Source: a virus. From it: a stretch of 64,000 nt of DNA. Made by a program: the position numbers and the translations under genes. Shown here piece after piece: positions 7,270-61,364 of this stretch (within the stretch, counting starts at the first letter, position 1; each line of letters begins with the position of its first letter). The DNA is taken from the IMG/VR virus record IMGVR_UViG_3300023174_000061; one strand, given 5' to 3'. The notes under the pieces are model-generated. The model saw only the letters and a list, made by a program, of their open reading frames with translations. It was not told the DNA's origin and did not search any database.

Positions 7270-9761
7270 GATTTTATACCAACGTCTATGAAAAATTTAA
7301 TAAAATGTTGGTTCGTGGTTATGAAGACGGTAGGTATTTTCAGTCAGAGGAAGAGTTTCAACCAACTCTTTATGTGACTTCAAAAAAACAAAGTAAGTAT
7401 AAAACTCTTGATGGATTAAGTGTTGAACCAATTCAACCTGGAAAGATTTCTGATTGTAAGGAGTTTTTAAAGAAATATGAAAATGTAGAAGGATTTACTG
7501 TTTATGGTAATGATAATTATAAAGCACAATATATTTCCCAAACATATCCAGAAGACGAAATTAAGTTTGATATTAAGAAAATTCGTCTTGTAACAATTGA
7601 TATTGAGGTTGCATCAGAAAATGGATTTCCAAATGTATTTGATTGTGCCGAAGAACTTCTAGCAATCACATTACAAAATTATGCAACAAAGCATATTATT
7701 TGTTTTGCATCTCGTCCTTATATCAATACTCGTAAGGATGTTGTGTATGTTGAATGTAGGGATGAAATTGATTTGATTAAACACTTTCTCGCATTTTGGG
7801 AAAGGGAAACTCCTGATGTGATTACAGGTTGGAACTGTGAGTTGTATGATATTCCTTACATTGCTGGAAGAATTGATAGAATTCTCGGTGAAAAGGAAGC
7901 ACGTCGTCTTTCTCCTTGGGGAAATATTCGCAGAAAAGAACTTGTAATTAAAGGAAGAGAACAAATCTCTTATGAAGTTGCTGGGGTTTCTGTGATTGAT
8001 TATCTTGACCTTTATAAGAAATTTACTTACAAGGCACAGGAATCTTATCGTCTGGACCATATTGCGAATGTGGAATTGGGTCAAAAGAAATTGGACCACT
8101 CTGAGTTTGAGACTTTTAAAGATTTTTATACAAAAGATTGGCAGAAGTTTATTGATTATAATATTCGAGACGTAGAACTTGTAGACCAATTGGAAGACAA
8201 GATGAAACTCATCGAATTATGTTTTACAATGGCTTATGATGCAAAAATAAATTTTAATGATGTATTCTTTCAGGTAAGAACTTGGGATGCAATCATTTAT
8301 AATTACTTAAAGAAAAGGAATATTGTTATTCCCCCTAAAGATCGTTCAGAGAAGAGTGATAAATTTGCTGGTGCTTATGTAAAAGAACCAAAACCTGGAA
8401 AGTATGATTATGTAGTAAGTTTCGATTTGAACTCACTTTATCCGCATTTAATTATGCAATATAATATCTCACCAGAAACTTTGATTGATACAAGACATCC
8501 AAGTGCAACAGTAGATAAAATTCTCAATAAAGAATTGGATCTTTCTGATTATAAAGACTATGCAGTATGTCCGAATGGTGCGATGTATCGTAAAGACGTT
8601 CGTGGTTTTCTTCCAGAACTAATGGAGAAAATGTACAATGACCGTGTAATCTTCAAGAAAAAGATGTTGGAGGCAAAACAGCAATACGAAAAGACCAAGA
8701 CGAAAGAATTGGAAAGAGAAATTTCTAGATGCAACAATATCCAAATGGCAAAAAAGATTTCTCTGAATAGTGCTTATGGTGCTATCGGCAATCAGTATTT
8801 CAGGTATTATAAACTAGCAAATGCTGAAGCAATCACAATGTCTGGACAAGTTTCCATTCGTTGGATTGAATGTAAAATGAATTCATACCTAAACAAAATT
8901 CTTAAAACAAATGATGTTGATTATGTTATTGCTTCAGATACTGATTCCATTTATCTTAATATGGGTCCTTTTGTCGAAACTGTATACAAGGGAAGAGAAA
9001 AAACTACTGAGGAAATTGTTGGGTTCCTTGATAAGGTCTGTGCGATGGAATTTGAAAAATATATTGAGAGTTCTTACCAAGAACTGGCGGACTATGTAAA
9101 TGCATACGACCAGAAGATGCAGATGAAACGGGAGAATATTGCTGATCGTGGAATCTGGACTGCTAAGAAACGTTATATCTTGAATGTTTGGGATAGTGAA
9201 GGTGTTAGGTATGATGAACCTAAATTAAAAATTATGGGATTAGAAGCAGTTAAATCTTCTACTCCTGCTCCTTGTCGTCAAAAGATTAAGGATGCTCTTA
9301 AAATTGTGATGACTAAAACAGAAGATGAAATGATTTCTTTTATAGATAATTTCCGTAAAGCATTCAATCAACTTCCCCCAGAAGAAATTTCATTTCCACG
9401 TTCAATTAATGATGTGGACAAGCATAAATCGTCATCAACTCTGTATAGTAAAGGAACTCCCATTCACGCAAGAGGAGCAATTCTTTATAATCATCTAATT
9501 AAAGAAAAAAAATTAGATAAGAAGTATGCAAAAATTCAAAATGGTGAGAAGATTAAATTTTGTTATTTAAAACTTCCAAATCCAATTCGTGAAAATGTTA
9601 TTTCTTATATTCAAGAATTTCCAAAAGAATTTGGACTAGACAAATACATTGATTATGACCTACAATTCAGTAAAGCATTTTTAGAACCAATGAAAGTAAT
9701 TTTGGATGCAATTAACTGGAAAGTAGAAAAAACAGTAAACCTTGAATCATTTTTTAGCTAA
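7266..9761 (+). CDS. gp43: Family B DNA polymerase
   Basis: DIE exonuclease motif, SFDLNSLYP, K...NSAYG, SDTDS, KKRY; 831 aa, no intein. Confidence 0.98.
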   Translation: MRFYTNVYEKFNKMLVRGYEDGRYFQSEEEFQPTLYVTSKKQSKYKTLDGLSVEPIQPGKISDCKEFLKKYENVEGFTVYGNDNYKAQYISQTYPEDEIKFDIKKIRLVTIDIEVASENGFPNVFDCAEELLAITLQNYATKHIICFASRPYINTRKDVVYVECRDEIDLIKHFLAFWERETPDVITGWNCELYDIPYIAGRIDRILGEKEARRLSPWGNIRRKELVIKGREQISYEVAGVSVIDYLDLYKKFTYKAQESYRLDHIANVELGQKKLDHSEFETFKDFYTKDWQKFIDYNIRDVELVDQLEDKMKLIELCFTMAYDAKINFNDVFFQVRTWDAIIYNYLKKRNIVIPPKDRSEKSDKFAGAYVKEPKPGKYDYVVSFDLNSLYPHLIMQYNISPETLIDTRHPSATVDKILNKELDLSDYKDYAVCPNGAMYRKDVRGFLPELMEKMYNDRVIFKKKMLEAKQQYEKTKTKELEREISRCNNIQMAKKISLNSAYGAIGNQYFRYYKLANAEAITMSGQVSIRWIECKMNSYLNKILKTNDVDYVIASDTDSIYLNMGPFVETVYKGREKTTEEIVGFLDKVCAMEFEKYIESSYQELADYVNAYDQKMQMKRENIADRGIWTAKKRYILNVWDSEGVRYDEPKLKIMGLEAVKSSTPAPCRQKIKDALKIVMTKTEDEMISFIDNFRKAFNQLPPEEISFPRSINDVDKHKSSSTLYSKGTPIHARGAILYNHLIKEKKLDKKYAKIQNGEKIKFCYLKLPNPIRENVISYIQEFPKEFGLDKYIDYDLQFSKAFLEPMKVILDAINWKVEKTVNLESFFS

Positions 9762-9788
9762 TGGGTTTGCATATTAACAAAAACAGTA

Positions 9789-10340
9789 ATGGAGAAACAA
9801 ATGAAATTTTTATCATCTATTTTTAATAGATTAACTGCTTGGATGAGAAAAGATACTGATGTTATGGTTAGAAATGGTGATGGTTGGGGTGATGATGTCT
9901 TTTATCAAATTAAGATGGCATCACCTTCTCCTGAAGCAAAGACAACTGTTTATATTGATAAAAACACCAATATTATGAGTCCATACCCAGAAGTATCTGG
10001 AAGCACTACAGTTGGTGGTATTAGTATGGATATTGTTGCTGATATTGTTGATGGTATTAGCAACTGGGTAAATGATATGGACGTTTATGTTCGTATTCAG
10101 AGAGTTACCAGCAAAGGGGATAATGTAGGAAAAGCACTTCTTTTCTGTTTTACCAATCCTACCGTAGGATGCCCTTGGTTCTCTATTCAAAGGAGTGATG
10201 ATAGTTGGTATTATTTTGAAAAATCATTAGATGAAAATACTGGAGTTGGAGTTTTAGATGCTTTTGATGATGGAACTTCTCTCAGTATTACCAGGCAAGG
10301 TGATACGGATGTAAAAAATTGGAAAATTGACATTGGTTGA
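9789..10340 (+). CDS. Hypothetical protein between gp43 and uvsX
   Basis: 183-aa ORF with no motif I recognise. Confidence 0.65.
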
Positions 10341-35432: not shown

Positions 35433-36434
35433 ATGAAAGTTGCTTTAATTACTGGTATTACAGGTCAAGATGGATCTTATCTTGCTGAATTGCTCCTAGA
35501 AAAAGGATATGAAGTTCATGGTATTATTCGTCGTTGTTCTCTCATTAATACCCATCGTATCGATCATATTTACAATAAATTAAAGTTGCACTATGGAGAT
35601 CTAACTGATTCAACAAATCTTGTTAGAGTTATTAAGTTGGTTCAGCCTGATGAGATTTATAATCTTGGTGCTCAAAGTCATGTAAAGGTTTCTTTTGAGA
35701 TGCCTGAATATACAGGACAAACAGATGCATTAGGAACTTTGCGTGTTCTTGAAGCAGTTCGTTTGCTTGGGATGGAAGATAATGTTCGTATCTATCAAGC
35801 ATCTACTAGTGAAATGTTTGGATTAGTTCAAGAAGTTCCACAGAAAGAGACAACACCATTTTATCCCCGTTCTCCTTATGGATGTGCTAAAGTTTATGGA
35901 TATTGGATTACAAAGAACTATCGTGAGGCATATGGAATGTATGCTTGTACTGGTATTCTCTTTAACCACGAATCTCCAAGACGAGGTGAGACATTTGTAA
36001 CTCGTAAAATTACTCAGGCATTTTCTCGTATTTCTGTTGGTATGCAAGATTGTTTATATCTTGGTAATCTCAATGCAAAACGTGACTGGGGACATGCTAA
36101 AGATTTTGTTGAAGTTATGTGGTTGATGCTTCAACAAGATGATCCTGATGATTTTGTAATTGCGACTGGAAAGCAGTATTCAGTAAAAGAATTTGTAAAT
36201 GCTGCTGGACCTTATTTTGGTCTTCATATCGAATGGGAAGGAGAAGGACTTGAAGAGGTTGGGGTCGAAAAATTCAGCAGAATACCAATCATTCGTGTCA
36301 ATCCTAAATATTTTAGACCGACTGAAGTAGAGACTTTATTAGGTGATGCCTCTAAGGCAAAAGAAAAACTAGGTTGGGAACCTAAGATTTCTTTCGAACA
36401 ATTAGTTGAGGATATGTGTATTCATGGACAGTGA
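35433..36434 (+). CDS. gmd: GDP-mannose 4,6-dehydratase
   Basis: [45 protein letters not shown]. Confidence 0.97.
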
Positions 36435-37353
36435 TAGTAAGATTTTGGTTGCTGGTGCCAATGGAATGGTTGGATCTGCAATTGTAAGAAACTTGAGAAA
36501 GAAAGGGTGCTCTAACATTATTGAAGCAACTCGTAATAGAGTTGACTTTACCGATCAAGAGGAAACCAAAGAATTTTTTGAAAGAAACAAACCTGAGTAT
36601 GTGTTTGTTGCTGCTGCCAAAGTTGGTGGTATTATGGCAAACAATAATTACAAAGGAGATTTTCTGTATCAGAACCTAATGATTCAGAACAATATTATTC
36701 ACTACTCCATGGTTAATGATGTAACTAAACTTCTATTTCTTGGTTCTTCTTGTATCTATCCTAAGTTTGCTACTCAACCAATCACAGAAGATCAGTTGAT
36801 GAATGGTTCTCTGGAACCCACGAATGATGCATATGCAATTGCAAAGATTGCTGGAATTAAACTTTGCCAATCATACAGAGAACAGTATGGGTTCAATGCC
36901 ATCTCATTAATGCCAACAAATCTTTATGGTCCTAATGATAACTTTGATTTAGAAACTTCACATGTTCTCCCTGCACTTATCTCTAAGTTTCATATTGCAA
37001 AAGAATCACATGCTCCTGTAGTAATATGTTGGGGAGATGGTTCTGCAATGAGGGAGTTTCTACATGTTGATGATTTGGCAGAAGCATGTTTTTCCTGTAT
37101 GCAAAACTATGATGATCCAGAACATATCAATATTGGAACTGGTGAAGATGTTAGAATATGGGAACTTGCAAAAATTATTTCTGATGTAGTTGGTTTTTCT
37201 GGGGAGATTTTGTGGGACTTTACTAAACCTAATGGAACTCCAAGAAAAGTTCTAAACGTGAATAAAATCAAATCTCTTGGTTGGGAACCTAAAATTAGTC
37301 TTCGTGAAGGTGTCGAAGCAACTTATGACTGGTATAAAAGACATTATGAATAA
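36424..37353 (+). CDS. fcl: GDP-L-fucose synthase
   Basis: [37 protein letters not shown]. Confidence 0.96.
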
Positions 37354-41790: not shown

Positions 41791-42636
41791 ATGAAAATAT
41801 GTTTCTCTGATTTTTGGTCTCCTTTTGATCCAAACAATAACTTTTTTACTCATCTTTTAAATCAATCTTTTGAGAATGTTGAAGTTGTAAATCCAGAAGA
41901 TGCTGATGTAATGTTTTTCAGTGTTTTTGGAATGGAAAATAATTTATATAAAAATTGTAAAAAAATATTTTTTACTGGTGAAAATATAAGACCAAATTTT
42001 AATAAGTGTGATTATTCACTCACATTTGATTTTGATGATTATGAAGGAAAGAATTTTCGTCTTCCTCTTTGGTATCTTTATATTGATTGGTTTAATGTAA
42101 AGACCTATGATAATCCTGAATGGTTAATTCCAGAGTCTTATCTTTATGGTGAAAATGAATTCACTCAAAAACCAAAAGACAAATTTTGTTCGATTGTTTT
42201 TGGTAAAGTGGTTGAATCTAGATTAAATGCAATTCAAAAAATTTCTGAATATAAAAAAGTAGATATTTTTGGCAAAGCAAATCCAGAATACCATCTTCCA
42301 GATGGAGAAAAACATAAATTAGATTTAATTTCAAATTATAAGTTTTCTCTTTGCTATGAAAATTCTGTTACACCAGGTTATCATACTGAAAAATTACTTC
42401 ATGGAAAAATTGCTGGAAATATTCCAATTTATTATGGTGACAAAACTGTTTGTAAAGATTTTAATTCAAAGTGTTTTGTTAATACAGTAAATATGTCTGA
42501 TGAAGAATTGATTGAAATAATTAAACAAATTGATACAAATAAAAAATTGTATGATAGAATGAATTCTGAACCTTTATTTGAAAATAAAATTTCTCTTGAA
42601 CCATTAATTAAAAATCTTTATAATATTTTAAAATGA
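41791..42636 (+). CDS. Alpha-1,3/4-fucosyltransferase (GT10)
   Basis: FFTGEN; YKFSLCYENS..PGY.TEKL......GNIPIYYG. Confidence 0.88.
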   Translation: MKICFSDFWSPFDPNNNFFTHLLNQSFENVEVVNPEDADVMFFSVFGMENNLYKNCKKIFFTGENIRPNFNKCDYSLTFDFDDYEGKNFRLPLWYLYIDWFNVKTYDNPEWLIPESYLYGENEFTQKPKDKFCSIVFGKVVESRLNAIQKISEYKKVDIFGKANPEYHLPDGEKHKLDLISNYKFSLCYENSVTPGYHTEKLLHGKIAGNIPIYYGDKTVCKDFNSKCFVNTVNMSDEELIEIIKQIDTNKKLYDRMNSEPLFENKISLEPLIKNLYNILK

Positions 42637-44487: not shown

Positions 44488-45159
44488 ATGAAACTTGCTA
44501 TTTGTTTTTATGGATATCCGAGATTTTATGAAACTGGATATCAAACTACTAAAAAATTATATGAAGGTTGTAATTTGGAATATTATGCTAATTTTTGGGG
44601 AGATGGAAAAGAATTAGATCAAATTACTAGTCTTTTTAATTTTAAAAAAATAGAAATGCAACCACAAATGGAAAAATTTAAAGAAATATCTTGTAATCCA
44701 AATCTATCAAAAACTTCCAAAGATTTATTTACTACAATTTCTCCACTATATTCAATTCAAAAATTGCATAATTTAATAAAAGAATCAGATGAAGATTACG
44801 ATTTTTGGATTTTGACAAGAACTGATATTGGTGTTGATTTTGATTTTTATTTAAATAGTATTGAGTATGATAAAACTAAAATATATTCTTCATATGTAAG
44901 GGGAAATGAATGGTTAAATACCCATATAGATACAAAATTTATAATGTGCGACAAAAAAAATATTTTAAACTTGACAAATATATACGAAAATTTGGACCAT
45001 TATATCTGTAATAAAAATATTCCATTATGCCACCATCGTTTATTTTTTAATTCTCTTTTAGAATATGGAAGTGATATGGAAATGATCATGGCCAATCCCA
45101 ATGATGATTATGCTGGCGGATGGAGATTTATAAGAAATAATGAAATGAAAATTTCATGA
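44488..45159 (+). CDS. Hypothetical glycan-island protein (KxAxxxxGxxR family)
   Basis: MKLAICFYGYPR...YDFWILTRTD; paralogous to the next two genes. Confidence 0.65.
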   Translation: MKLAICFYGYPRFYETGYQTTKKLYEGCNLEYYANFWGDGKELDQITSLFNFKKIEMQPQMEKFKEISCNPNLSKTSKDLFTTISPLYSIQKLHNLIKESDEDYDFWILTRTDIGVDFDFYLNSIEYDKTKIYSSYVRGNEWLNTHIDTKFIMCDKKNILNLTNIYENLDHYICNKNIPLCHHRLFFNSLLEYGSDMEMIMANPNDDYAGGWRFIRNNEMKIS

Positions 45160-45893
45160 AAAATTTAAAGATTTGCATTTTGATAATTGGTAGATTGGAT
45201 ACCTTTGAAACTTGTTATGAATCTTTACACAAATATATTTTAGAACCACTTAATGTGGATGTATTTTTTTCTGGATATCCAAATTTTCTTGGGTTGGAAT
45301 ATTGTGAAAATAAAATTGAAGAATTGTGGAAACCAAAAAAATATTGTTTAAGAGACTATACTGATATTATTAGAAAATAAATTCATTTGGATGATTCGAG
45401 ATTTATAAGAAAAAGGTCAGAATGTACTCCACATACTTGGTTGAGTGGAATGTATAATCTTAAAATTTCCAATAAATTAAAAAATGAATATGAGAAAGAA
45501 AATAATTTTAAATATGATATTTGTATAAAATCTAGAACAGATGCAATTTGGCATAGTTATATAACAAATGAAGAAATTGATTTGGTTCTCAAAGATTCAA
45601 AAAATATTTTGATTCCTACTGCATGGGATTTTAAAGAAGTACATAATTTAGGTTGTTCTGATGTTTCTTGTGTAACTTCTTCACATGGAATGGATATATA
45701 TTCATCTTGTATAGACTTTATAGATGAATATTATGATTCTGGAGAAGTATTTCATCCAGAAAGTCTTCTTGGTATTCATATTAATAATTTTTTAAATAGA
45801 ATATCAATAAAAACTGGAATTGATCCATATACAAACCAACCTAATCAATCTGGATGGTGTGTTGTTGATCCAAATAGAAAAAAATCTTTTTAA
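45156..45893 (+). pseudogene. Paralogue interrupted by a single in-frame TAA at 45378-45380
   Basis: ORFs 45156-45380 and 45387-45893 share a frame (IRK*IHLDD); joined product has KICILIIGRL...KYDICIKSRTD like its neighbours. Confidence 0.7.
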
Positions 45894-45900
45894 TAAAAAA

Positions 45901-46695
45901 ATGAAAATAGCATTATTAATTTGTGGTCAAATGAGAACTTTTGATCACCCAAAAGTATTAAAATATTTAAATCAATTTATTGAAAAGTTTAATTGTGATG
46001 TATTTTTGTCAACTTGGAATAATAGAGGAATATCTGTTTGGAGTGAACATGCTTTAAAAGAACAAGCAGATATTCAAAATCAAGAAAAAAATAAATCAAT
46101 CAGTTTAGACCATATTAACTTAATTCCTAATATTAAAAAATATACAATAGATGATTATGAAGAATTCATTAACAATCAATCTAATGGTGAAATAAAATCA
46201 TTTTTAAATCAAAGTTCAGATACTTTGTATCACTCAAAAGCAACTAGTATTCCTTCTTTATATAAATTGTATTCTACATACCAACTACTTGAAGAATACG
46301 AAAAAGAAAATAAAATTAAATATGATATTGTAATTAAAACCAGACCAGATTTTTTACATGTTCATACTGACATAGAAAAATATTTTGATAGAATTGATGA
46401 CACTTTATTTCATATTAATACTGGCATATCTTATTGTCCAGATAGGGTGTATGAAATGTTTTTTCTTTCGTCGTCAAGTATTATGAAAACAGTTTGTGAA
46501 TCTTGGTTAAACTTTAATCAATTGGTTGGTACTGATTATTCTTTGCATATGGCTAGATTGGATGCTTGTAGATTGGTCTATTCTCAGTGCATTCTAAATA
46601 ATATTAAGATAGACACATTTGATAAGGTTCTTGGTGATGTTCTGAGAATAGAAAATTACTCAGACTACCAATCTTTCGAAAATATGTTTATTTGA
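45901..46695 (+). CDS. Hypothetical glycan-island protein (KxAxxxxGxxR family)
   Basis: MKIALLICGQMRTF...DVFLSTW...KYDIVIKTRPD. Confidence 0.65.
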   Translation: MKIALLICGQMRTFDHPKVLKYLNQFIEKFNCDVFLSTWNNRGISVWSEHALKEQADIQNQEKNKSISLDHINLIPNIKKYTIDDYEEFINNQSNGEIKSFLNQSSDTLYHSKATSIPSLYKLYSTYQLLEEYEKENKIKYDIVIKTRPDFLHVHTDIEKYFDRIDDTLFHINTGISYCPDRVYEMFFLSSSSIMKTVCESWLNFNQLVGTDYSLHMARLDACRLVYSQCILNNIKIDTFDKVLGDVLRIENYSDYQSFENMFI

Positions 46696-46743
46696 TTGAC
46701 ATTTTTTGTTTTTTATTTTAAAATTTTTTTATAACCCTTGTAT

Positions 46744-48177
46744 ATGACTATGAACATTTTATTTCCAATCGCAGGTCTTGGAACTCGTTTTAAATCAAAT
46801 GGTTACAATGAACCAAAACCATTTGTAGATGTAAAAGGAAAACCATTAATTGAATGGGCAATTTCCTCAATCAATCTTCCTGGAAAATATTACATTATTG
46901 TTAATGGTCTTCCAGCAAAATACATTCAAGTTCTTACTGATATTAAGAACAAATATTATTTGGATATGGAAATTATTGATATTGGACATTCTACTAGAGG
47001 ACAAGCAGAAACTTGTCTTCTTGCATTAGAAACTGGAAAAATTGATCTTTCTGAACCACTGGTTATTACAAATTGTGATCAGTATACTCCTTGGAATCCT
47101 AATAAGTTTATTAAATTTATTAAAGAAACAGACTGTGATGGAGTAGTTTCTACATATGATCATTCGGATGTTGTTGTTGGTGAGGAAAGTAGATATAGTC
47201 ATATTGAACTCGATGAAAATGGTTATGCAACTAGACTTGCTGAAAAAGTTGCAATTTCTCCCTGGTCTTTGAATGGAATTTTCTACTGGAAGAATGCAAA
47301 CCTTTTTGTTGAAAGTGCAAAGAACCTTATGACTGATGATTCGGATGCAGGATGGTCATCTGGTAAAGTTTCTTGTGTTAAAGAAAAATATGTTGCTTTG
47401 ACTTATAATTATTTGATTAAGGATGGTTATAAGATTAAAAACTATCATATGGAATGTGATGATTTTGTGTCCCTTGGAAGTCCTGGAGAAATTATTTTGA
47501 ATCTTAAGCAATCGAATGTAAAACAAGCTGTTGAAGATATTCGCAATGGTAAACCAATTGTTATGGTTGATGATTATGATCGTGAATTTGAAGGAGATAT
47601 TGTATTTGCAGCAGAAAAAGCAACCGAAGAAAATCTTCTTTTTGCTATGAGACACGCAAGAGGATTGATGTGCCTTCCTTGCAATCAGGAAAAACTGGAT
47701 CAACTTGAAATTCCTATGATGAATTGCAATTCAATGGATAAGTATGGAACTCCTTTTGCAACTAGTATTGATGCAGTAGAAGGTGCTACTACTGGTATGT
47801 CCGTTGGTGATCGTCTTGCTACTATCAATACCTTCTGCTCTGATGAATCTAAACCAAGTTCTCTTGCACAACCTGGTCACTTATTCCCTCTCCGTGCCCG
47901 TCCTGGTCTTCTGTCTGAACGTAGAGGTCACACTGAGGGATGCGTTGAAATTCTCCGTTTAGCAGGTATGAAGGAGGTTGGAGTTATTATTGAAATTATG
48001 GATGAATATGGAAAAATGATTAAGGGTGATACTCTCCGTCAGTTTGCTAAGATTTATAATCTTACTTTTGTTTCAATTGAAGAACTTCATGATGAAGTTT
48101 ATAGCAAGTCTGAATCTGGAAGAGTTCCTCTTTCTTCTGTTAGCAAAGAAACCTTAGAAAATATGATGAAGATTTGA
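46744..48177 (+). CDS. ribB: Sugar nucleotidyltransferase-like domain fused to RibB (DHBP synthase)
   Basis: PIAGLGTRF...PKP, TRGQAET, NCD; then VDDYDREFEGD, TTGMS.GDR, PGHLFPL, RRGHTEG, EIM. Confidence 0.88.
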   Translation: MTMNILFPIAGLGTRFKSNGYNEPKPFVDVKGKPLIEWAISSINLPGKYYIIVNGLPAKYIQVLTDIKNKYYLDMEIIDIGHSTRGQAETCLLALETGKIDLSEPLVITNCDQYTPWNPNKFIKFIKETDCDGVVSTYDHSDVVVGEESRYSHIELDENGYATRLAEKVAISPWSLNGIFYWKNANLFVESAKNLMTDDSDAGWSSGKVSCVKEKYVALTYNYLIKDGYKIKNYHMECDDFVSLGSPGEIILNLKQSNVKQAVEDIRNGKPIVMVDDYDREFEGDIVFAAEKATEENLLFAMRHARGLMCLPCNQEKLDQLEIPMMNCNSMDKYGTPFATSIDAVEGATTGMSVGDRLATINTFCSDESKPSSLAQPGHLFPLRARPGLLSERRGHTEGCVEILRLAGMKEVGVIIEIMDEYGKMIKGDTLRQFAKIYNLTFVSIEELHDEVYSKSESGRVPLSSVSKETLENMMKI

Positions 48178-49142
48178 TGGACTTTACAACTAGAGCTTAT
48201 AATAGTTTTGAATTTAATTCAAAAACAAAAGCAAGTATTATTAAATCTAGTGAAGAAGATCGTCTTCTTGGGGAGATTGAATACTATCAAAATCTCCCTA
48301 AGGATATTCAAGTTTATTTTCCAAGAATGTTGAATTATTCAACTGATGAAAAAATTTATCAGATGGAACTTGAATATTATGCTTATGGAAATTTGGGAAA
48401 TGTTATGACAAATCAGGATTATAATCCTGATTTTTGGACTAAAGTTTTTGACTTTATTTTTTCTTACATCAATAACTATAAGGAATCTACTTCCGTTCTT
48501 GCATCTAAAGAAGACTCTTTATTGATGTTTGTGGATAAGACAGAGAAAGAATACATTAATTTGATGTATAAGTTTGATTTTTTCTCTCAATTTAGAAATA
48601 CAAAAGAATTTGTATTTAATGGTAAGATTTTAAAATCCTTTGATGTTATTTGGGAAAAAATTAAATCTTATATTGAAACATCAATATGTGATGATAAATT
48701 TCATTTTATTCATGGTGATCTTTGTTTTAGTAATATTCTTTATGGAGTAAATGATATTACCAATGATGTGATTTTAAAATTCATTGATCCTAGAGGAGTT
48801 TTTGGTAAAACAAAATTCTTCGGTGATTCATATTATGATCTTGCAAAAATATCACATTCATGTAATGGTGGTTATGAATTTTTTATCTATGATAAGTTTG
48901 ATGTTTCAAATGTAGGTAATCAATTCAAACTTTCTTTTCATAATGAGCAAAGAAAAAATGATATTAATAATAAATTTTTATCTATTTCTGATGAGTATAA
49001 ATTTGATTATAATAAGATAAAATTAATTGAAGGTCTTATCTTTGTTGGAATGTGTGCAAGACACTATGACAATTTAGATAGACAAAAAGCAATGTTGATG
49101 ACTGGACTTAATATTTTAAACAATGTCTACGAAAATTTATAA
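48177..49142 (+). CDS. APH/choline-kinase-fold sugar kinase (capsule-biosynthesis type)
   Basis: RAYN, EIEYY, IHGDLCFSNIL, IDPRG.FG, YD.AK. Confidence 0.8.
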   Translation: MDFTTRAYNSFEFNSKTKASIIKSSEEDRLLGEIEYYQNLPKDIQVYFPRMLNYSTDEKIYQMELEYYAYGNLGNVMTNQDYNPDFWTKVFDFIFSYINNYKESTSVLASKEDSLLMFVDKTEKEYINLMYKFDFFSQFRNTKEFVFNGKILKSFDVIWEKIKSYIETSICDDKFHFIHGDLCFSNILYGVNDITNDVILKFIDPRGVFGKTKFFGDSYYDLAKISHSCNGGYEFFIYDKFDVSNVGNQFKLSFHNEQRKNDINNKFLSISDEYKFDYNKIKLIEGLIFVGMCARHYDNLDRQKAMLMTGLNILNNVYENL

Positions 49143-49482
49143 ATTTTGTTTTGATCTTGATGGAACAATATGCCACATTAAGAAAGAGGGACAACACTAT
49201 CTTGACGTTGAACCTCTTCCTGGTGCAGTTGAGACACTGCAAAGATTGAAGTCTAAAGGTCACTACATTATTATTATGACAGCAAGAAACATGCTTACAT
49301 ATAATAATAATGTAGGTAAAATTATTGCCAATCAATCACCTATTGTGTTAGAATGGTTAAATAAACATCAAATTCCTTATGATGAAATTCATTTTGGAAA
49401 ACCACTTGCTGACTTTTATATTGATGATAAAGCAATTAGATTAACTAATTGGGAAAATTTTAACAAACAAATTGGAGAATAA
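49123..49482 (+). CDS. HAD phosphatase, BcbF/EcbF capsule type
   Basis: FDLDGTIC, TAR.M, WL.K..IPYDEI.FGKP..DFYIDDKA. Confidence 0.85.
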   Translation: MSTKIYKFCFDLDGTICHIKKEGQHYLDVEPLPGAVETLQRLKSKGHYIIIMTARNMLTYNNNVGKIIANQSPIVLEWLNKHQIPYDEIHFGKPLADFYIDDKAIRLTNWENFNKQIGE

Positions 49483-49483
49483 A

Positions 49484-50293
49484 ATGAGAGATTTCTTTTT
49501 TGATACAGCTAACATTCCATTTATTAAAGATACAATGGAAAAATATGGATCACAAATTGATCCAAAATGGGTGCGAGGCATAACAACAAATCCAAATGCA
49601 TTCAGTAAAGTTGATATGTATCATTTGGATGAATGGATTTCACATGCATCAGAAATGGGAAAATTGATTGCTGATATTCGTGGTGATAATGAAGGTGAGA
49701 TTCATATTCAAGCACCTTATTCATTATTAGATCCAAAGATTATTCTTGAATATGCAAAAATTATTACTGATGCAACACAAGGAAACTGTAAGGTTGGAAT
49801 GAAAATTCCTCCCTTCCAAAATGTTCTTGAGTATGTTGATGAATATAATCAGTATGTAATTACTAATGTTACTGGTCTTGCAGATTCATCTACTGCTCTT
49901 AAATGTTGCACCTATAATGTTGGATATGTGAGCATCATTCCTGGTCGTATGGAAGAAGTTGGAATCGATGCAGAGTCTGCGATTGCTTTTGTAAACCAAT
50001 GCAATTTTGGTAATACTCAAATTATTACTGGAAGTCAAAGAACAACTGAACAAATAATTTATTCATTCTACTTAGATACTGTCCCTACAATTGGTGAAAA
50101 GTGTTGGGGTGATATTTTTCAAGGTGATAATTTCCAACGTATTTTGGATATTGAATATGGTTATGAACCTGTTGGTCCTTTTAGTCCAACAATTTCTCAA
50201 GATAATATCAATCTTTCTCTTGCTTTCTTTGAACAAATGGATAGTCTTGGAGATACTGCTAGAAATGATTTGGAGAAAAAGATATCTTTATGA
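49484..50293 (+). CDS. Divergent transaldolase/fructose-6-phosphate aldolase family protein
   Basis: FFDTAN, GITTNP, KIP Schiff-base Lys, NVT, YVSIIPGR, GSQR. Confidence 0.8.
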   Translation: MRDFFFDTANIPFIKDTMEKYGSQIDPKWVRGITTNPNAFSKVDMYHLDEWISHASEMGKLIADIRGDNEGEIHIQAPYSLLDPKIILEYAKIITDATQGNCKVGMKIPPFQNVLEYVDEYNQYVITNVTGLADSSTALKCCTYNVGYVSIIPGRMEEVGIDAESAIAFVNQCNFGNTQIITGSQRTTEQIIYSFYLDTVPTIGEKCWGDIFQGDNFQRILDIEYGYEPVGPFSPTISQDNINLSLAFFEQMDSLGDTARNDLEKKISL

Positions 50294-51240
50294 GAATAGC
50301 ATTTCATGATAATTCTTTATGTTTGCGGGGAACCACAGTAGCAATTTATGATTGGGCATATTGGACTAGACATTATCTTAATATTGACCCAATCATTATG
50401 TTTAATTTAAAAAATAATTTTAATGATAAAAGTGTCATTAAAAAATTTGAAAACGAATTTCCTGTTTTTGGATATGAAGATAAATCCCAAATAGATGATA
50501 TTTTATCCAAAAATAAATGTGATGCATTTTTAATGGAAAAAGGAGGTGAACCTGATGGTGTAATTTCATCAGTTTCTAAAAATTTAGTAAATGCTATATC
50601 TGGATGGTGGAAACCAGAATGGGTTCATGGAGATGTTTATGCTATGGGTTCAAAATGGTTGTCTAAAATAACTGATTATAAAATACCTTATGTTCCATAT
50701 ATTGTACATCTTCCAGATCATAATTTAAATATGAGAGATGAGTTAGGAATTCCTAAAGATGCATTGGTTTTTGGAAGAAATGGTGGGTGGGATACTTTTG
50801 ATCTTCAATTTGTAAAGCAATCAATTGTAGAAAATTTAGAAAAAAGAAGTGATATTTGGTTTATTTTTCAATACACAGAACCTTTTTATGAACATGAAAG
50901 AATAATATATCTTGAACCAACTGCTGATTTGAATGAAAAAGTTAGATTTATTAATACTTCTGATGTGATGCTACATGCAAGAAATATTGGGGAATCTTTT
51001 GGATTATCTTGTGCAGAATTTTCAATTAGAAATAAACCTGTGATTACTTATTACAATTCTCTCGAAAGAAATCATATTGATACTTTAGATGAAAAAGGAA
51101 TATTTTATGAAAATAAAGAAGATATTGATCATATTTTATTGAACCTAGATAGAAATGAAATAACTGGATTGGAATGGAATTGTTATCAAGACTATTCTCC
51201 CGAAAATGTAGTACAAAAATTTAAAGAGGTTTATTTGTGA
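50290..51240 (+). CDS. GT-B glycosyltransferase (GT4-like)
   Basis: RGTTVAIYD, FGRNGG, GESFGLSCAEF...KPVI. Confidence 0.75.
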   Translation: MRIAFHDNSLCLRGTTVAIYDWAYWTRHYLNIDPIIMFNLKNNFNDKSVIKKFENEFPVFGYEDKSQIDDILSKNKCDAFLMEKGGEPDGVISSVSKNLVNAISGWWKPEWVHGDVYAMGSKWLSKITDYKIPYVPYIVHLPDHNLNMRDELGIPKDALVFGRNGGWDTFDLQFVKQSIVENLEKRSDIWFIFQYTEPFYEHERIIYLEPTADLNEKVRFINTSDVMLHARNIGESFGLSCAEFSIRNKPVITYYNSLERNHIDTLDEKGIFYENKEDIDHILLNLDRNEITGLEWNCYQDYSPENVVQKFKEVYL

Positions 51241-51877: not shown

Positions 51878-52771
51878 ATGAAATCTTTAGTAACAGGCGG
51901 TGCTGGATTTATTGGTTCCAATCTAGTTGATGCACTCATAGAGTTAGGTCATGAAGTTATAGTAATTGATAATGAAAGTGCAGAATCTAATGGACAATTT
52001 TATTGGAATCCAAAAGCACAAAATTACAAGTATGATATTTGTGATTATGAAAAAACTAGACCTCTTTATGAAGGTGTTGATTATGTATTTCATCTTGCTG
52101 CTGAGGCAAGGATTCAACCAGCAATTTTAAATCCAATTGAAGCAATAACTACTAATTGTGTTGGTACAGTTACAGTTCTTCAATGTGCCAGAGAGGCAGG
52201 AGTTCAAAAAGTAATTTATTCCTCCACATCTTCTGGTTATGGATTTAATCAATCTCCAAATCACGAAAATCAACGAGATGATTGTTTGAATCCATATTCA
52301 GTATCAAAAGTTGCTGGAGAAAAACTTTGTAAAATGTATAATGACCTATTTGGTCTTAAAACAATTTTCTTTAGATATTTTAATGTTTATGGTGAAAGAC
52401 AACCATTAAAGGGACAATATGCACCAGTAATTGGTATTTTCTTACGTCAAAGAAAAGATGCCGAACCTCTTACAATTGTTGGTGATGGTGAACAACGTAG
52501 AGACTTCACACACGTATCTGATGTAGTTCAAGCAAATATTCTTGCAGCAACAAAAGATATTAATGATGAATTTTATGGAGAACTTTATAATGTAGGTAAT
52601 GGAGTTAATTATTCGATTAATGAAATTGCAAATGCTATTTCTGAAAATCAAATAAATATTCCAACAAGAATTGGAGAGTCACGAACTACTCTTGCAAACA
52701 ATGGAAAATTGAGAACCATTTTTGGATGGAGACCTCAAGTGAATTTAATGGATTGGATTAAAACTCAATGA
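51878..52771 (+). CDS. NAD-dependent nucleotide-sugar epimerase/dehydratase
   Basis: VTGGAGFIGS, HLAA, YSVSK, RYFNVYG, RDFTHV. Confidence 0.92.
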   Translation: MKSLVTGGAGFIGSNLVDALIELGHEVIVIDNESAESNGQFYWNPKAQNYKYDICDYEKTRPLYEGVDYVFHLAAEARIQPAILNPIEAITTNCVGTVTVLQCAREAGVQKVIYSSTSSGYGFNQSPNHENQRDDCLNPYSVSKVAGEKLCKMYNDLFGLKTIFFRYFNVYGERQPLKGQYAPVIGIFLRQRKDAEPLTIVGDGEQRRDFTHVSDVVQANILAATKDINDEFYGELYNVGNGVNYSINEIANAISENQINIPTRIGESRTTLANNGKLRTIFGWRPQVNLMDWIKTQ

Positions 52772-59000: not shown

Positions 59001-59663
59001 TTGGCGATTTTTTACAACCCCCGCACGATTACTGACGGACTCGTATTAGCACTTGATGCTGCGAACAGAAAGTCTTATCCTGGGTCTGGAACCACTTGGA
59101 CTGATTTGAGTGGTAGAGGTAATACAGGAACACTGACAAATGGACCGACTTATAGTAGTACAAATGGTGGGTCTATTGTTTTTGATGGGGTTGATGATTA
59201 TATTGATTTAAATACTAACAATATAATAACAGGAACAAATCCATTTACATTTGAGGCATTTTATACAATAACCAATACTTCAGTAAATGCAGAAATATTT
59301 GGTAATTATGGTCCTGGATATTCATTAAATACTATCTGGATTTCTGGTAGGTTTGGTGTATTTATTAATGGTTCAGTTCCATATTTTCAAGATCATCCAT
59401 TAGGTGCTGGCACTTATCATATGGCATTCACAAGAACTTCTACTGGAGATTGTATCTTATATAAGAATGGCATAGTAGATGGAACTGCAACAAGTACTAC
59501 TAGTATTCCAGTAGGACAGAATTTTAGAATTGGTTCTGATGTATATCAAATTGCTGAACAATTTGGAGGAAATCTTTATAATCTAAAAGTTTACAATAGA
59601 GTGCTCACCGCAGCAGAAATCTCACAAAACTTTAATGCTCTCCGTTCAAGGTTCTCAATATAA
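59001..59663 (+). CDS. LamG/concanavalin A-like lectin domain protein 1
   Basis: GLVLALDAAN.KSYPGSGTTWTDLSG...FDGVDDY...YNR.L...EI.QNFNA. Confidence 0.8.
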   Translation: MAIFYNPRTITDGLVLALDAANRKSYPGSGTTWTDLSGRGNTGTLTNGPTYSSTNGGSIVFDGVDDYIDLNTNNIITGTNPFTFEAFYTITNTSVNAEIFGNYGPGYSLNTIWISGRFGVFINGSVPYFQDHPLGAGTYHMAFTRTSTGDCILYKNGIVDGTATSTTSIPVGQNFRIGSDVYQIAEQFGGNLYNLKVYNRVLTAAEISQNFNALRSRFSI

Positions 59664-59680
59664 ATATCTAAAAAACGATT

Positions 59681-59941
59681 ATGTACTCTGATAGAAACTT
59701 TCTTATTTTTCCAGTCACCGAACTACCAAAAGTAGATTTCTCTCAGGTGTGTGAGACTTCTATTGATACTGTGCGTAAGAGTACAGATGAAACCAAGACC
59801 TTTGTGAAATGGGATGGTGAGGTTCCTGCATTTGTTGTAGATATTGTAGGTGCCGAAGGACCTTATACTTATGAGGAGATTTTGGAGATTTTGAGTGGTG
59901 AGGAATGGTCTGCTCCTATGCCTATGGAGGAAATTGTATAG
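59681..59941 (+). CDS. Small acidic hypothetical protein
   Basis: TATAAATA at 59659; VDFSQV.ETS..TVRKS.D.TKTFVKW. Confidence 0.7.
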   Translation: MYSDRNFLIFPVTELPKVDFSQVCETSIDTVRKSTDETKTFVKWDGEVPAFVVDIVGAEGPYTYEEILEILSGEEWSAPMPMEEIV

Positions 59942-60642
59942 TGGGATTAGCACACTCACCTTCAATAGTAATGAATGGACTTGTACTAGCACTGGATGCT
60001 GGGAATGTAAAAAGTTATCCTGGAAGTGGAACCACCTGGACTGATTTGAGTGGTAGAGGTAATACAGGAACACTGACAAATGGACCGACTTATAGTAGTA
60101 CAAATGGTGGGTCTATTGTTTTTGATGGGGTTGATGATTATGGAACTATAGAAGCAAATTCAAGTTTCCAACTTGGGAATGGATATACATTATGTGCTTG
60201 GGTAAAGGCTAATAATAATCCAGGAAATTATGCAGGAATATGTGGAACATTTGATGCAATTCCTTCTGCATATTTTGGGTCTAATTTTTCAATACAACCA
60301 AATACTCAAACATTTTATTTTTTAGTTGGAGGTTCATCTACTTATTATATACCAGCATTAACAACATATACAATAGGTCAATGGTATTATCTAATTGGTA
60401 CTATTTCTGGAGCAGAGTGTAAATTTTATATAAATGGAACTTTGAACACTACTTACACTCAACCATCTGCTTCAAGTGCTCCTGGACCAACAACAAAATT
60501 TAAAATGGGTAGATATTATCAAGATCTTGATGAGTTTTATTTTAATGGTAATATAGCAACTTGTAAGTTTTACAACAGAGCACTCTCCGCAGCAGAAATC
60601 TCACAAAACTTTAATGCTCTCCGTGGTCGTTATGGAATTTAA
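59941..60642 (+). CDS. LamG/concanavalin A-like lectin domain protein 2 (GTG start)
   Basis: Same conserved N/C blocks as copy 1. Confidence 0.8.
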   Translation: MGLAHSPSIVMNGLVLALDAGNVKSYPGSGTTWTDLSGRGNTGTLTNGPTYSSTNGGSIVFDGVDDYGTIEANSSFQLGNGYTLCAWVKANNNPGNYAGICGTFDAIPSAYFGSNFSIQPNTQTFYFLVGGSSTYYIPALTTYTIGQWYYLIGTISGAECKFYINGTLNTTYTQPSASSAPGPTTKFKMGRYYQDLDEFYFNGNIATCKFYNRALSAAEISQNFNALRGRYGI

Positions 60643-60656
60643 CAGAGGAAACTAAA

Positions 60657-61364
60657 ATGGGAGTATACGCAGGACCAGAAATATCAAGTGATGGATTAGT
60701 CCTTTCACTGGATGCTGGGAATGTAAAAAGTTATCCTGGAAGTGGAACCACCTGGACTGATTTGAGTGGTAGAGGTAATACAGGAACACTGACAAATGGA
60801 CCGACTTATAGTAGTACAAATGGTGGGTCTATTGTTTTTGATGGGGTTGATGATTATACATCAATATCAAACAATAGTTTATTATCTTTCGGCACAAATT
60901 CGTTTACTATTAATTTATGGATAACAAGAACAACTACAAATTCATTCAATCCAATTATAACAACATATAATAATTATAGTGGTGGATATTCTACATATTT
61001 TTATGCAGGAATATATAGTGCTTCTAATGTTTATGATACTGGATTTACTATCTTAACATCAGGTGGAAGTCATATTACAACTCTTTCAGCAATACCAATA
61101 ACAAATAATGAATGGATTAATGTTTCCGTAACAAGAAGTGGGGATAATATTACTCTCTATAGAAATGGAAGTTTTTATTCAACTGCATCTTCATCTGGTA
61201 ATGATTGGTCTGGTACTGGAAGACCAACTTTGATAGGGGGTGGAGTTGCCGGTACAACTCCATTAAATGGAAACATATCACAAGTATCAGCATACAACAG
61301 AGCACTCTCAGCAACAGAAATCCAACAAAACTTTAATGCTCTTAGGGCAAGATTTGGCATCTAA
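60657..61364 (+). CDS. LamG/concanavalin A-like lectin domain protein 3
   Basis: Same conserved N/C blocks; GAGG RBS. Confidence 0.8.
   Translation: MGVYAGPEISSDGLVLSLDAGNVKSYPGSGTTWTDLSGRGNTGTLTNGPTYSSTNGGSIVFDGVDDYTSISNNSLLSFGTNSFTINLWITRTTTNSFNPIITTYNNYSGGYSTYFYAGIYSASNVYDTGFTILTSGGSHITTLSAIPITNNEWINVSVTRSGDNITLYRNGSFYSTASSSGNDWSGTGRPTLIGGGVAGTTPLNGNISQVSAYNRALSATEIQQNFNALRARFGI

Follow-up and report, generated by a model that had tools for sequence, protein, structure and literature searches.

A RibB-containing gene cassette of a T4-like cyanophage suggests that an unusual activated sugar is made by a pathway not described before

In the recycling of N-acetylmuramic acid (MurNAc) by Pseudomonas, a HAD phosphatase, an aminoglycoside phosphotransferase (APH)-fold kinase and a nucleotidyltransferase (NTase), called MupP, AmgK and MurU, respectively, turn a sugar 6-phosphate into a UDP-sugar, with the phosphatase acting first. 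Phage HY126 codes for AfhE, which combines an NTase and a kinase, and for the HAD protein AfhF. According to a paper that cites He et al., Nat Chem Biol 2026 (PMC13326640), these proteins convert arabinofuranose 5-phosphate (Araf-5-P), made from ribulose 5-phosphate (Ru5P) by an isomerase, to Araf-1,5-P2, then to Araf-1-P and finally to UDP-Araf. A pathway had been predicted earlier for RB69 (PMC6024577). The fructofuranose side chain of the Pasteurella multocida type B capsule genetically depends on bcbE and bcbG, with bcbF as a predicted participant (PMC13552107); the Campylobacter jejuni HS1 paper gives no pathway information on fructose activation. Here we analyse four overlapping genes at positions 46744-50293 (+) of the IMG/VR virus record IMGVR_UViG_3300023174_000061, a 64,000-nucleotide stretch of DNA hereafter called the window. 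They code for a fusion of an NTP-transferase to RibB (3,4-dihydroxy-2-butanone-4-phosphate synthase), a kinase of the APH fold, a small phosphatase of the HAD type and a divergent enzyme of the transaldolase (TAL)/fructose-6-phosphate aldolase (FSA) fold, hereafter the cassette aldolase. The cassette, which many uncultured relatives also have, suggests that an unusual activated sugar, destined for a glycan encoded by the virus, is made by a pathway not described before.

The cassette is a conserved phage module with five enzyme activities, which most likely makes an unusual, furanose-forming sugar activated with a nucleoside diphosphate (NDP) from Ru5P for the glycosyltransferases of the surrounding gene island. 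By analogy with the AfhE/AfhF and Bcb systems, its kinase, HAD and NTase appear to form a known kind of back end, in which a furanose-forming sugar with a terminal phosphate is converted to an NDP-sugar, the kinase acting before the phosphatase. RibB and the aldolase look like a swapped-in entry branch from Ru5P. To our knowledge, the only role described elsewhere for the product of RibB, 3,4-dihydroxy-2-butanone 4-phosphate (DHBP), is that of the four-carbon building block in riboflavin synthesis. We found no publication on this cassette, and literature searches combining cyanophages or Synechococcus phage S-SKS1 with DHBP, or DHBP with nucleotide sugars and aldolases, returned nothing relevant.

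Cassette layout and conservation in viral genomes

The window comes from a marine, T4-like cyanophage: it encodes a gp43 polymerase that shares 70-72% identity with its counterparts in Synechococcus and Prochlorococcus myophages, as well as psbA and a phage lysozyme. An earlier note, made by a model from the sequence of the window, had described four coupled genes at this locus, and the open reading frames (ORFs), their overlaps, the Pfam and NCBIfam matches and the fold matches all agree with that description (Table 1). From the fusion onward, each gene overlaps the next one, by 4, 20, 11 and 4 nt in turn, as would be expected for translationally coupled genes. Homologues of the fusion protein begin at the MNIL sequence, i.e., at position 46750. 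The sigma-70-like promoter match found ahead of the cassette is suggestive. Such matches are not in excess across the region (63 found versus 59.9 expected), and only its position counts in its favour.

Among 50,697 phage records, the same cassette was found only in S-SKS1 (SWZG_00042-00039), where it is syntenic and 75.7% identical at the nucleotide level. In that phage the kinase is labelled 'hypothetical' and the HAD 'phosphoheptose isomerase', and in the PHROGs database neither the fusion nor the kinase belongs to a family with an assigned function. The 'phosphoheptose isomerase' label, which the small HAD bears in S-SKS1 (SWZG_00040), in Serratia phage 92A1 (CDS0042) and in PHROG 1238, looks like a propagated misannotation. 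A 6-phosphogluconate dehydrogenase gene is located near the sugar island of S-SKS1.

That these genes also occur together elsewhere was borne out by a neighbourhood survey. We scanned IMG/VR with an aldolase profile and ran tblastn on the resulting 48 loci: the kinase was found in all 48, the HAD in 47, RibB in 46 and the NTase in 43. The linkage persists down to 33% identity (range 33-98%), with shuffled gene orders and other fusions or splits. Distant members are arranged as RibB-kinase-NTase-HAD-aldolase or RibB...kinase...HAD-aldolase-NTase, and one of the most distant full-length aldolase relatives still stands in the row RibB-kinase-x-HAD-aldolase. NTase and RibB are separate genes in several metagenome contigs, and the NTase gene may lie on the far side of the cassette. 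A metagenome protein of 478 residues (P0491) is a natural fusion of an N-terminal HAD and a cassette-type aldolase (residues 157-393), a second fusion that ties pathway members together. One of the two loci without RibB is truncated by the end of its contig.

In comparisons with S-SKS1 and with an IMG/VR relative, dN/dS ratios were between 0.08 and 0.17 for all four genes, with dS near saturation; all four are under purifying selection. Their co-occurrence is far beyond chance, and they constitute a genuine unit that is widespread and maintained by selection. Marine metagenomes commonly contain the cassette, with hundreds of protein clusters, single ones of which are found on dozens of contigs, so that infected picocyanobacteria may produce its sugar in large amounts.

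Table 1. Features of the cassette and its surroundings (positions in the window)
Feature	Position	Strand	Size or basis
NTase::RibB fusion gene	46738/46744/46750-48177	+	479 aa from the TTG at 46738
Sugar-1-phosphate NTase domain, N-terminus of the fusion	46744..47490	+	PF00483
RibB domain and short tail, C-terminus of the fusion	47512..48177	+	PF00926
APH-fold kinase gene	48174/48177-49142	+	322 aa
APH-fold small-molecule kinase	48177..49142	+	AlphaFold2 model, motifs, AfhE-like homology
HAD phosphatase gene	49123-49482	+	119 aa
Small HAD phosphatase, EcbF-BcbF / AfhF type	49123..49482	+	TIGR01689 best match, DLDGT
TAL/FSA-fold aldolase gene	49472/49484-50293	+	273 aa
Putative class I aldolase, short decameric TAL/FSA fold, cassette-specific family	49484..50293	+	PF00923, AlphaFold2 model
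Sigma-70-like promoter match	46696..46724	+	TTGACA-17-TAAAAT, 11/12; lies in the gap of 42 nt immediately upstream of the cassette
Candidate glycosyltransferase	50290..51240	+	316 aa; weak Glycos_transf_1 (Pfam)
SDR nucleotide-sugar epimerase/dehydratase	51878..52771	+	PF01370, 196 bits
Three ORFs of unknown function, ~250-aa family phrog_13607	44488-45159, 45387-45893, 45820-46695	+	PHROGs; weak DUF7796

The fused RibB, the cassette aldolase and the activation enzymes

The RibB domain of the fusion matches DHBP_synthase with 220 bits (Pfam cut-off 26.4; residues 263-451) and passes the NCBIfam equivalog-domain profile TIGR00506 (185.6 bits versus 177.45). It aligns without gaps over 199 residues with Yersinia RibB (3h07, E 3e-49), and solved RibB structures generally align over ~190-200 gap-free residues. 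The motifs DREFEGD, TTGMSVGDR, PGH and RRGHTE are all present in the translation. Asp281, Arg282, Glu283, Glu285, Asp287, His381, the segment from Arg395 to Glu400 and Glu419, which we take to be catalytic from the structural literature on RibB, do not vary among 15 homologues, the most distant of which is 43% identical. The RibB active site thus appears intact, as had been proposed, and the domain is predicted to convert Ru5P to DHBP and formate. The window had also seemed devoid of other flavin genes, and this pattern holds more widely: neither lumazine synthase (PF00885) nor GTP cyclohydrolase II (PF00925) was found in the complete genome of S-SKS1 or in five more cassette-bearing viral records, two of which are at least 90% complete, nor was riboflavin synthase (PF00677) found in the complete genome of S-SKS1. 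Beyond the cassette phages, RibB-domain matches in the phage collection are limited to Acinetobacter phage MD-2021a and two bacterial-looking or unannotated records.

The NTase domain matches NTP_transferase with 27.1 bits (Pfam cut-off 21.2; residues 13-196). Its top match in the PDB is the NDP-sugar pyrophosphorylase 4evw; weaker matches are of the HddC, MurU and GlmU types, and there are also weak IspD/TarI-type matches. Gly13, Gly15, Arg17, Lys27, Gln89, Asp114 and Glu169-Lys170 are invariant in 15 fused homologues. The fusion is found in >120 metagenome protein clusters, in identity tiers of roughly 90, 75, 46 and 40%, and the catalytic motifs of its RibB part and, in its NTase part, the positions G-x-G-x-R...K, Q, D and E-K are invariant throughout. 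Other cyanomyophages fuse a similar NTase domain elsewhere, namely to an unknown N-terminal domain in gp067 of S-CAM9 and to a 'phosphatase' in gp206 of Bellamy, at loci devoid of RibB, the cassette kinase and the cassette aldolase. In the sugar islands of cyanophages, the NTase is a modular building block.

The cassette aldolase matches TAL_FSA with 39.4 bits (Pfam cut-off 27) and misses the cut-off of the equivalog TIGR00875 (fsa_talC_mipB) by a wide margin, with 24.3 bits versus 245.95. Its AlphaFold2 (AF2) model has a predicted local distance difference test (pLDDT) score of 93, and Foldseek matches it to TM0295 TAL, sulfofructose TAL and Thermoplasma acidophilum TAL (E 1e-9). The motifs NVTGL, YVSIIPGR, GSQR, D, TTNP and KIP are all in the translation. 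The protein keeps Asp11, TTNP, Lys111, N-V-T, Ser154, Arg159, Ser188 and Arg190. Of these, Lys111 (the K of KIPP), which is invariant in the family, aligns with the Schiff-base Lys86 of T. acidophilum TAL, and Arg159, Ser188 and Arg190 align with the phosphate-binding Arg/Ser/Arg of the same enzyme. The equally invariant Gln80 occupies the position of the catalytic Glu of TAL, and Ile156-Pro157 stand where TAL has Phe and FSA its catalytic Tyr, Ile156 being invariant as well. An exhaustive HMM search of 1.84 billion representative proteins yielded 430 relatives (162 at E<=1e-10), and the family is small and sharply separate from ordinary transaldolases. The view that this enzyme is not the usual cyanophage talC was upheld: in S-SKS1, a canonical talC that carries the Glu/Phe signature exists in addition, and its product is only ~23% identical to the cassette aldolase. 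No canonical talC was found in the window by tblastn with S-SKS1 TalC. The ORF at 59001-59663 was considered as a talC candidate and rejected, as it codes for a Laminin_G_3 protein.

Pfam gives no match for the kinase of the window, and PF01636 is found on some of its homologues. Searches of the PDB by sequence returned marginal protein-kinase matches only, and the ESM Atlas only 'APH, hypothetical'. The fold of its AF2 model (pLDDT 91.5) matches those of APH(2'')/APH(3') and 5-methylthioribose kinase, and its HGDLCFSN and IDPRG motifs are invariant among homologues. Remote homologues are frequent in T-even-like phages. In Serratia phage 92A1, the kinase matches the C-terminal half of a 566-aa AfhE-like protein, with 30% identity over the catalytic core (E 4e-13). 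The gene of the latter lies between those for arabinose-5-phosphate isomerase and for the mislabelled, AfhF-like HAD of 119 aa, to which the HAD of the window is 32% identical (E 4e-11). The cassette kinase is probably an anomeric sugar-phosphate kinase. No SIS domain was detected with Pfam among the ORFs scanned between 35433 and 53472. As for the small HAD phosphatase, it matches several Pfam HAD families, and its top family is TIGR01689 (EcbF-BcbF), with 99.4 bits, under the subfamily cut-off of 162 (NCBIfam). Motif I (DxDxT) is present as DLDGT, and kinase and NTase genes adjoin that of the HAD both here and in bacterial loci.

Running the kinase profile against prokaryotes, each species being represented by one genome, yielded 80 bacterial loci, in Lachnospiraceae, Fimbriimonadaceae, Nitrospirillum, Nocardioides, Ferrimonas and others. 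An NTase homologue was present in 74 of them and a HAD homologue in 70 (38-53% identical to the cassette HAD); RibB or the aldolase was found within 8 kb in none (0/80), indicating that these two constitute a phage-specific front end. The bacterial kinases carry an additional ~200 aa at their N terminus. Their genes are found in polysaccharide contexts, with UDP-glucose dehydrogenase, epimerases, family 2 glycosyltransferases (GT2) and Glf as neighbours. No SIS isomerase was found beside the kinase-HAD-NTase set in a Lachnospiraceae locus (L017). The HAD of a Ferrimonas locus passes TIGR01689 (212 bits versus 162) and is thus a true EcbF-BcbF member; together with the best family match of the phage HAD, this substantiates the link to BcbF-type capsule modules made in the earlier note.

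Proposed pathway and competing explanations

We estimate at roughly one in two the probability that RibB-derived DHBP feeds an NDP-activated sugar. The RibB domain, being intact and of equivalog level, would first convert Ru5P to DHBP, with release of formate. In a more speculative second step, the TAL-fold enzyme would bind a C3 ketol unit, drawn from fructose 6-phosphate (F6P), sedoheptulose 7-phosphate (S7P) or dihydroxyacetone, as a Schiff base to its conserved lysine and would add that unit to the ketone of DHBP, yielding 4-C-methyl-hex-2-ulose 6-phosphate, an analogue of F6P. The anomeric hydroxyl would then be phosphorylated by the APH-fold kinase, the terminal phosphate removed by the HAD phosphatase and the NDP-sugar made by the fused NTase. 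The assignment of these last three steps draws on the homology of the kinase and the HAD with AfhE/AfhF, on the sugar-1-phosphate fold of the NTase and on the BcbE/F/G-type bacterial sets, and their likely order on the first of these. The involvement of both a phosphatase and a kinase had been proposed in the earlier note, and it stands; the order given there, dephosphorylation followed by re-phosphorylation, is less likely than kinase first in view of the AfhE/AfhF pathway as set out in PMC13326640.

The second step is suggested by several lines of reasoning. The aldolase family is found almost only beside RibB, which argues that both enzymes work on one metabolite. DHBP is glyceraldehyde 3-phosphate (GAP) with a methyl group in place of the aldehyde hydrogen, and the spacing of C=O, CHOH and CH2OP is the same in both. 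DHBP cannot close a furanose ring, and hence it needs to be extended. A role as acceptor of the C3 unit fits with the fact that the phosphate site of the aldolase is kept and the residues beside the acceptor carbonyl are altered; one idea from the alignment is that Ile156 might make room for the methyl group. An F6P analogue would in turn suit the back end, as the relatives of the latter are tied to fructofuranose and arabinofuranose. The specific product suggested by these analogies, an NDP-activated 4-C-methyl-ketohexose built from DHBP and a C3 unit, is a tentative assignment, which we regard as possible rather than probable.

Several points weigh against the proposed pathway. We know of no sugar with a 4-C-methyl-ketohexose skeleton in any glycan. 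Stereochemical reasoning indicates that the product of RibB is the L-(S) isomer, which corresponds to L-GAP and not to D-GAP. The aldolase is devoid of both the Glu of TAL and the Tyr of FSA, which from the sequence makes its proton relay, and even its aldolase activity, uncertain. Ketones are rare as aldolase electrophiles, and, according to one report, just a single type of aldolase dependent on dihydroxyacetone phosphate (DHAP) is known to use them (PMC6202814). The NTase domain has no significant pairwise BLAST match to the N-terminal half of AfhE, both being of the NTP-transferase fold. Finally, one full-length locus (L117, IMGVR_UViG_3300010338_001360) has the kinase, the HAD and the aldolase with neither RibB nor NTase within 6 kb. 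All other full-length cassette loci have RibB; in L117, the stretch upstream codes instead for a further APH-like kinase, of 269 aa, and for an unknown protein of 359 aa, and considering these two as a replacement for RibB revealed no substitute enzyme.

Other explanations share part of this evidence. DHBP might be nucleotidylated directly on its phosphate, in the manner of CDP-ribitol or CDP-6-fructose, or be attached as a non-sugar substituent, with the kinase, the HAD and the aldolase activating an ordinary ketose such as fructose or sedoheptulose. NTases are known to occur fused to the enzymes that make their phospho-alcohol substrates (Bcs1/TarIJ), the NTase domain of the cassette has weak IspD/TarI-type matches, and a C. 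jejuni enzyme makes CDP-6-fructose from F6P (PMC10918830). However, the best matches of the NTase are sugar-1-phosphate enzymes (4evw, HddC, MurU, GlmU) and its E-K motif is conserved; in many relatives it is not fused to RibB and sometimes lies on the other side of the cassette, and the near-exclusive pairing of the aldolase family with RibB argues that these two act on one metabolite. We thus deem such a role for DHBP unlikely. A different order or substrate is also conceivable, with the TAL-fold enzyme supplying a longer ketose phosphate such as S7P or F6P and the RibB-like domain dehydrating, rearranging and deformylating it to a 1-deoxy-ketose phosphate shorter by one carbon, which the kinase, the HAD and the NTase would activate as an NDP-1-deoxy-ketofuranose. 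That scheme uses all five activities, can draw on S7P, a normal transaldolase product, and delivers a furanose-forming ketose that fits fructofuranose and arabinofuranose modules. It is nonetheless somewhat less likely still, because RibB scores above the equivalog cut-off, aligns gap-free over ~190 residues and keeps its substrate and phosphate motifs, with no hint of a site for a longer substrate, and because the aldolase is far from canonical TAL.

The remaining two explanations concern the destination of the products. If the pathway is as proposed, its activated sugar might decorate the bases of phage DNA, as UDP-arabinose does in RB69-like phages, given that the characterized AfhE/AfhF homologues serve DNA arabinosylation and that T-even-like phages commonly have remote homologues of the kinase. 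S-SKS1 is devoid of a ThyA-family gene for hydroxy- or hydroxymethyl-cytosine, however, and the cassette is embedded in a 17-kb island rich in glycan genes, which makes DNA a very improbable target. RibB might also be an auxiliary metabolic gene that raises the riboflavin/FMN content of the host, its place in a sugar cassette being incidental. The domain is intact and looks canonical, and the host would be expected to supply the other flavin enzymes. Against this stand its presence beside the other three enzymes (aldolase, kinase, HAD) at 46 of the 48 viral loci, at 33-98% identity and in several gene orders, its fusion to the NTase in a large clade, the saturated dS, the six cassette-bearing genomes in which no other flavin gene was found, and the near restriction of RibB-domain matches in the phage collection to cassette phages, apart from Acinetobacter phage MD-2021a and the two bacterial-looking or unannotated records. 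We consider a role in flavin supply the least probable explanation of all.

If correct, the route from DHBP to an NDP-sugar would be the first case of RibB serving a purpose other than flavin synthesis, and nucleotide sugars would be seen to arise in a new manner. In the version with the 4-C-methyl-ketohexose, it would also provide a route to a branched-chain sugar independent of S-adenosylmethionine (SAM) and thiamine diphosphate (ThDP), a ketone-accepting class I aldolase of natural origin and a monosaccharide new to the glycans made by marine viruses. Both S-SKS1 and its host, Synechococcus WH7803, are in culture, making the idea directly testable.

The surrounding glycan island and comparison with known systems

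The cassette is located within a low-GC, single-strand island of ~17 kb (35.4-53.5 kb), which codes for a GDP-mannose 4,6-dehydratase, a second epimerase of the short-chain dehydrogenase/reductase (SDR) family, GT10-, GT25-, GT47-like and other transferases, and FkbM and class I methyltransferases. This gene content is typical of glycan assembly. A homologue of the 316-aa candidate glycosyltransferase is found within 6 kb in 17 of the 48 viral cassette loci, directly downstream in the closest relatives. The SDR cluster to which the 51878..52771 gene belongs is represented in 40 of 59 cassette loci, single-linkage clustering possibly merging different SDRs in that figure; this enzyme could tailor the NDP-sugar. 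A phrog_13607-type cluster is found in 52 of the 59 loci and in none of the 80 bacterial kinase-HAD-NTase loci, making the proteins of this family candidates for dedicated transferases of the new sugar. Two short adjacent ORFs in this area, 45156-45380 (74 aa) and 45387-45893 (168 aa), may represent a split gene, an internal start or a sequencing error, the 168-aa product matching the C-terminal two-thirds of the 242-aa SWZG_00044 of S-SKS1.

Other parts of the region gave additional observations. The segments 35433-37353 and 41791-42636 code for the GDP-mannose 4,6-dehydratase, the second SDR epimerase and a GT10 fucosyltransferase; the epimerase may be a GDP-fucose synthase, in which case fucose could be both synthesized and transferred by the phage's own enzymes. 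Among the ORFs scanned, none for a flippase, a polymerase or an ABC exporter was noticed, which leaves room for a cytoplasmic target such as virion proteins. The products of three tandem genes at 59001-61364, of 220, 245 and 235 aa, all contain a lectin domain of the Laminin_G_3 / concanavalin-A-like type and could be sugar-binding virion or fibre proteins. On a 154-kb phage-like metagenome contig (L009), the gene directly downstream of that for the cassette aldolase (8812-10047) codes for a 411-aa protein of the RuBisCO large-subunit family (PF00016, 110 bits). It is probably a RuBisCO-like protein, and as such proteins act on enolizable ketose or diketo phosphates, it may tailor the same intermediate as the cassette enzymes.

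Both front-end enzymes have well-described relatives from which they differ by their setting. The RibB of the cassette shares an equivalog-level score and an intact active site with the RibB of riboflavin synthesis, but it is fused or adjacent to a sugar NTase, inside a glycan cassette, without partner flavin genes in the six genomes. The cassette aldolase shares the fold, the Schiff-base lysine, the Asp, the TTNP motif and the phosphate-binding Arg/Ser/Arg with TalC, FSA and sulfofructose transaldolase. It differs from TalC and FSA by a Gln in place of the Glu of TAL, an Ile in place of the Tyr of FSA, an additional C-terminal helix of ~50 aa and its tie to RibB.

The back end resembles three known systems to different degrees. 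With the BcbE/BcbF/BcbG proteins of P. multocida type B/E capsules it shares TIGR01689 as the best family of the HAD and the link to a ketofuranose, fructose, and with the wider bacterial set the grouping of homologous kinase, HAD and NTase genes in polysaccharide loci. Those loci have neither RibB nor aldolase, and the phage HAD scores below the family cut-off; BcbE and BcbG are the presumed counterparts of the kinase and the NTase. With MupP/AmgK/MurU the likeness is at the superfamily level only, with three superfamilies in common and a weak MurU match on the NTase domain; the sugar is another one there, and the phosphatase acts first. Likeness to AfhE/AfhF and their isomerase, as found in HY126, RB69, DLP3 and 92A1, extends further. 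Those proteins are also phage-encoded and start from Ru5P, and they comprise a kinase of the APH fold that acts at the anomeric position, a small HAD phosphatase and an enzyme of the NTP-transferase fold. Through the 92A1 genes, detectable homology links their kinase and HAD to those of the cassette, and in both systems the NTase is fused to another pathway enzyme. That partner is the kinase in AfhE and RibB here, the NTase parts not being similar by BLAST, and the target is DNA there, whereas it is probably a glycan here. The entry is a SIS isomerase in the one case, and RibB with a TAL-fold enzyme in the other. The activation module would thus be a reusable back end, fed by a SIS isomerase for arabinose, by nothing extra in the fructose-linked bacterial loci, and by RibB and the aldolase in the cyanophage cassette.

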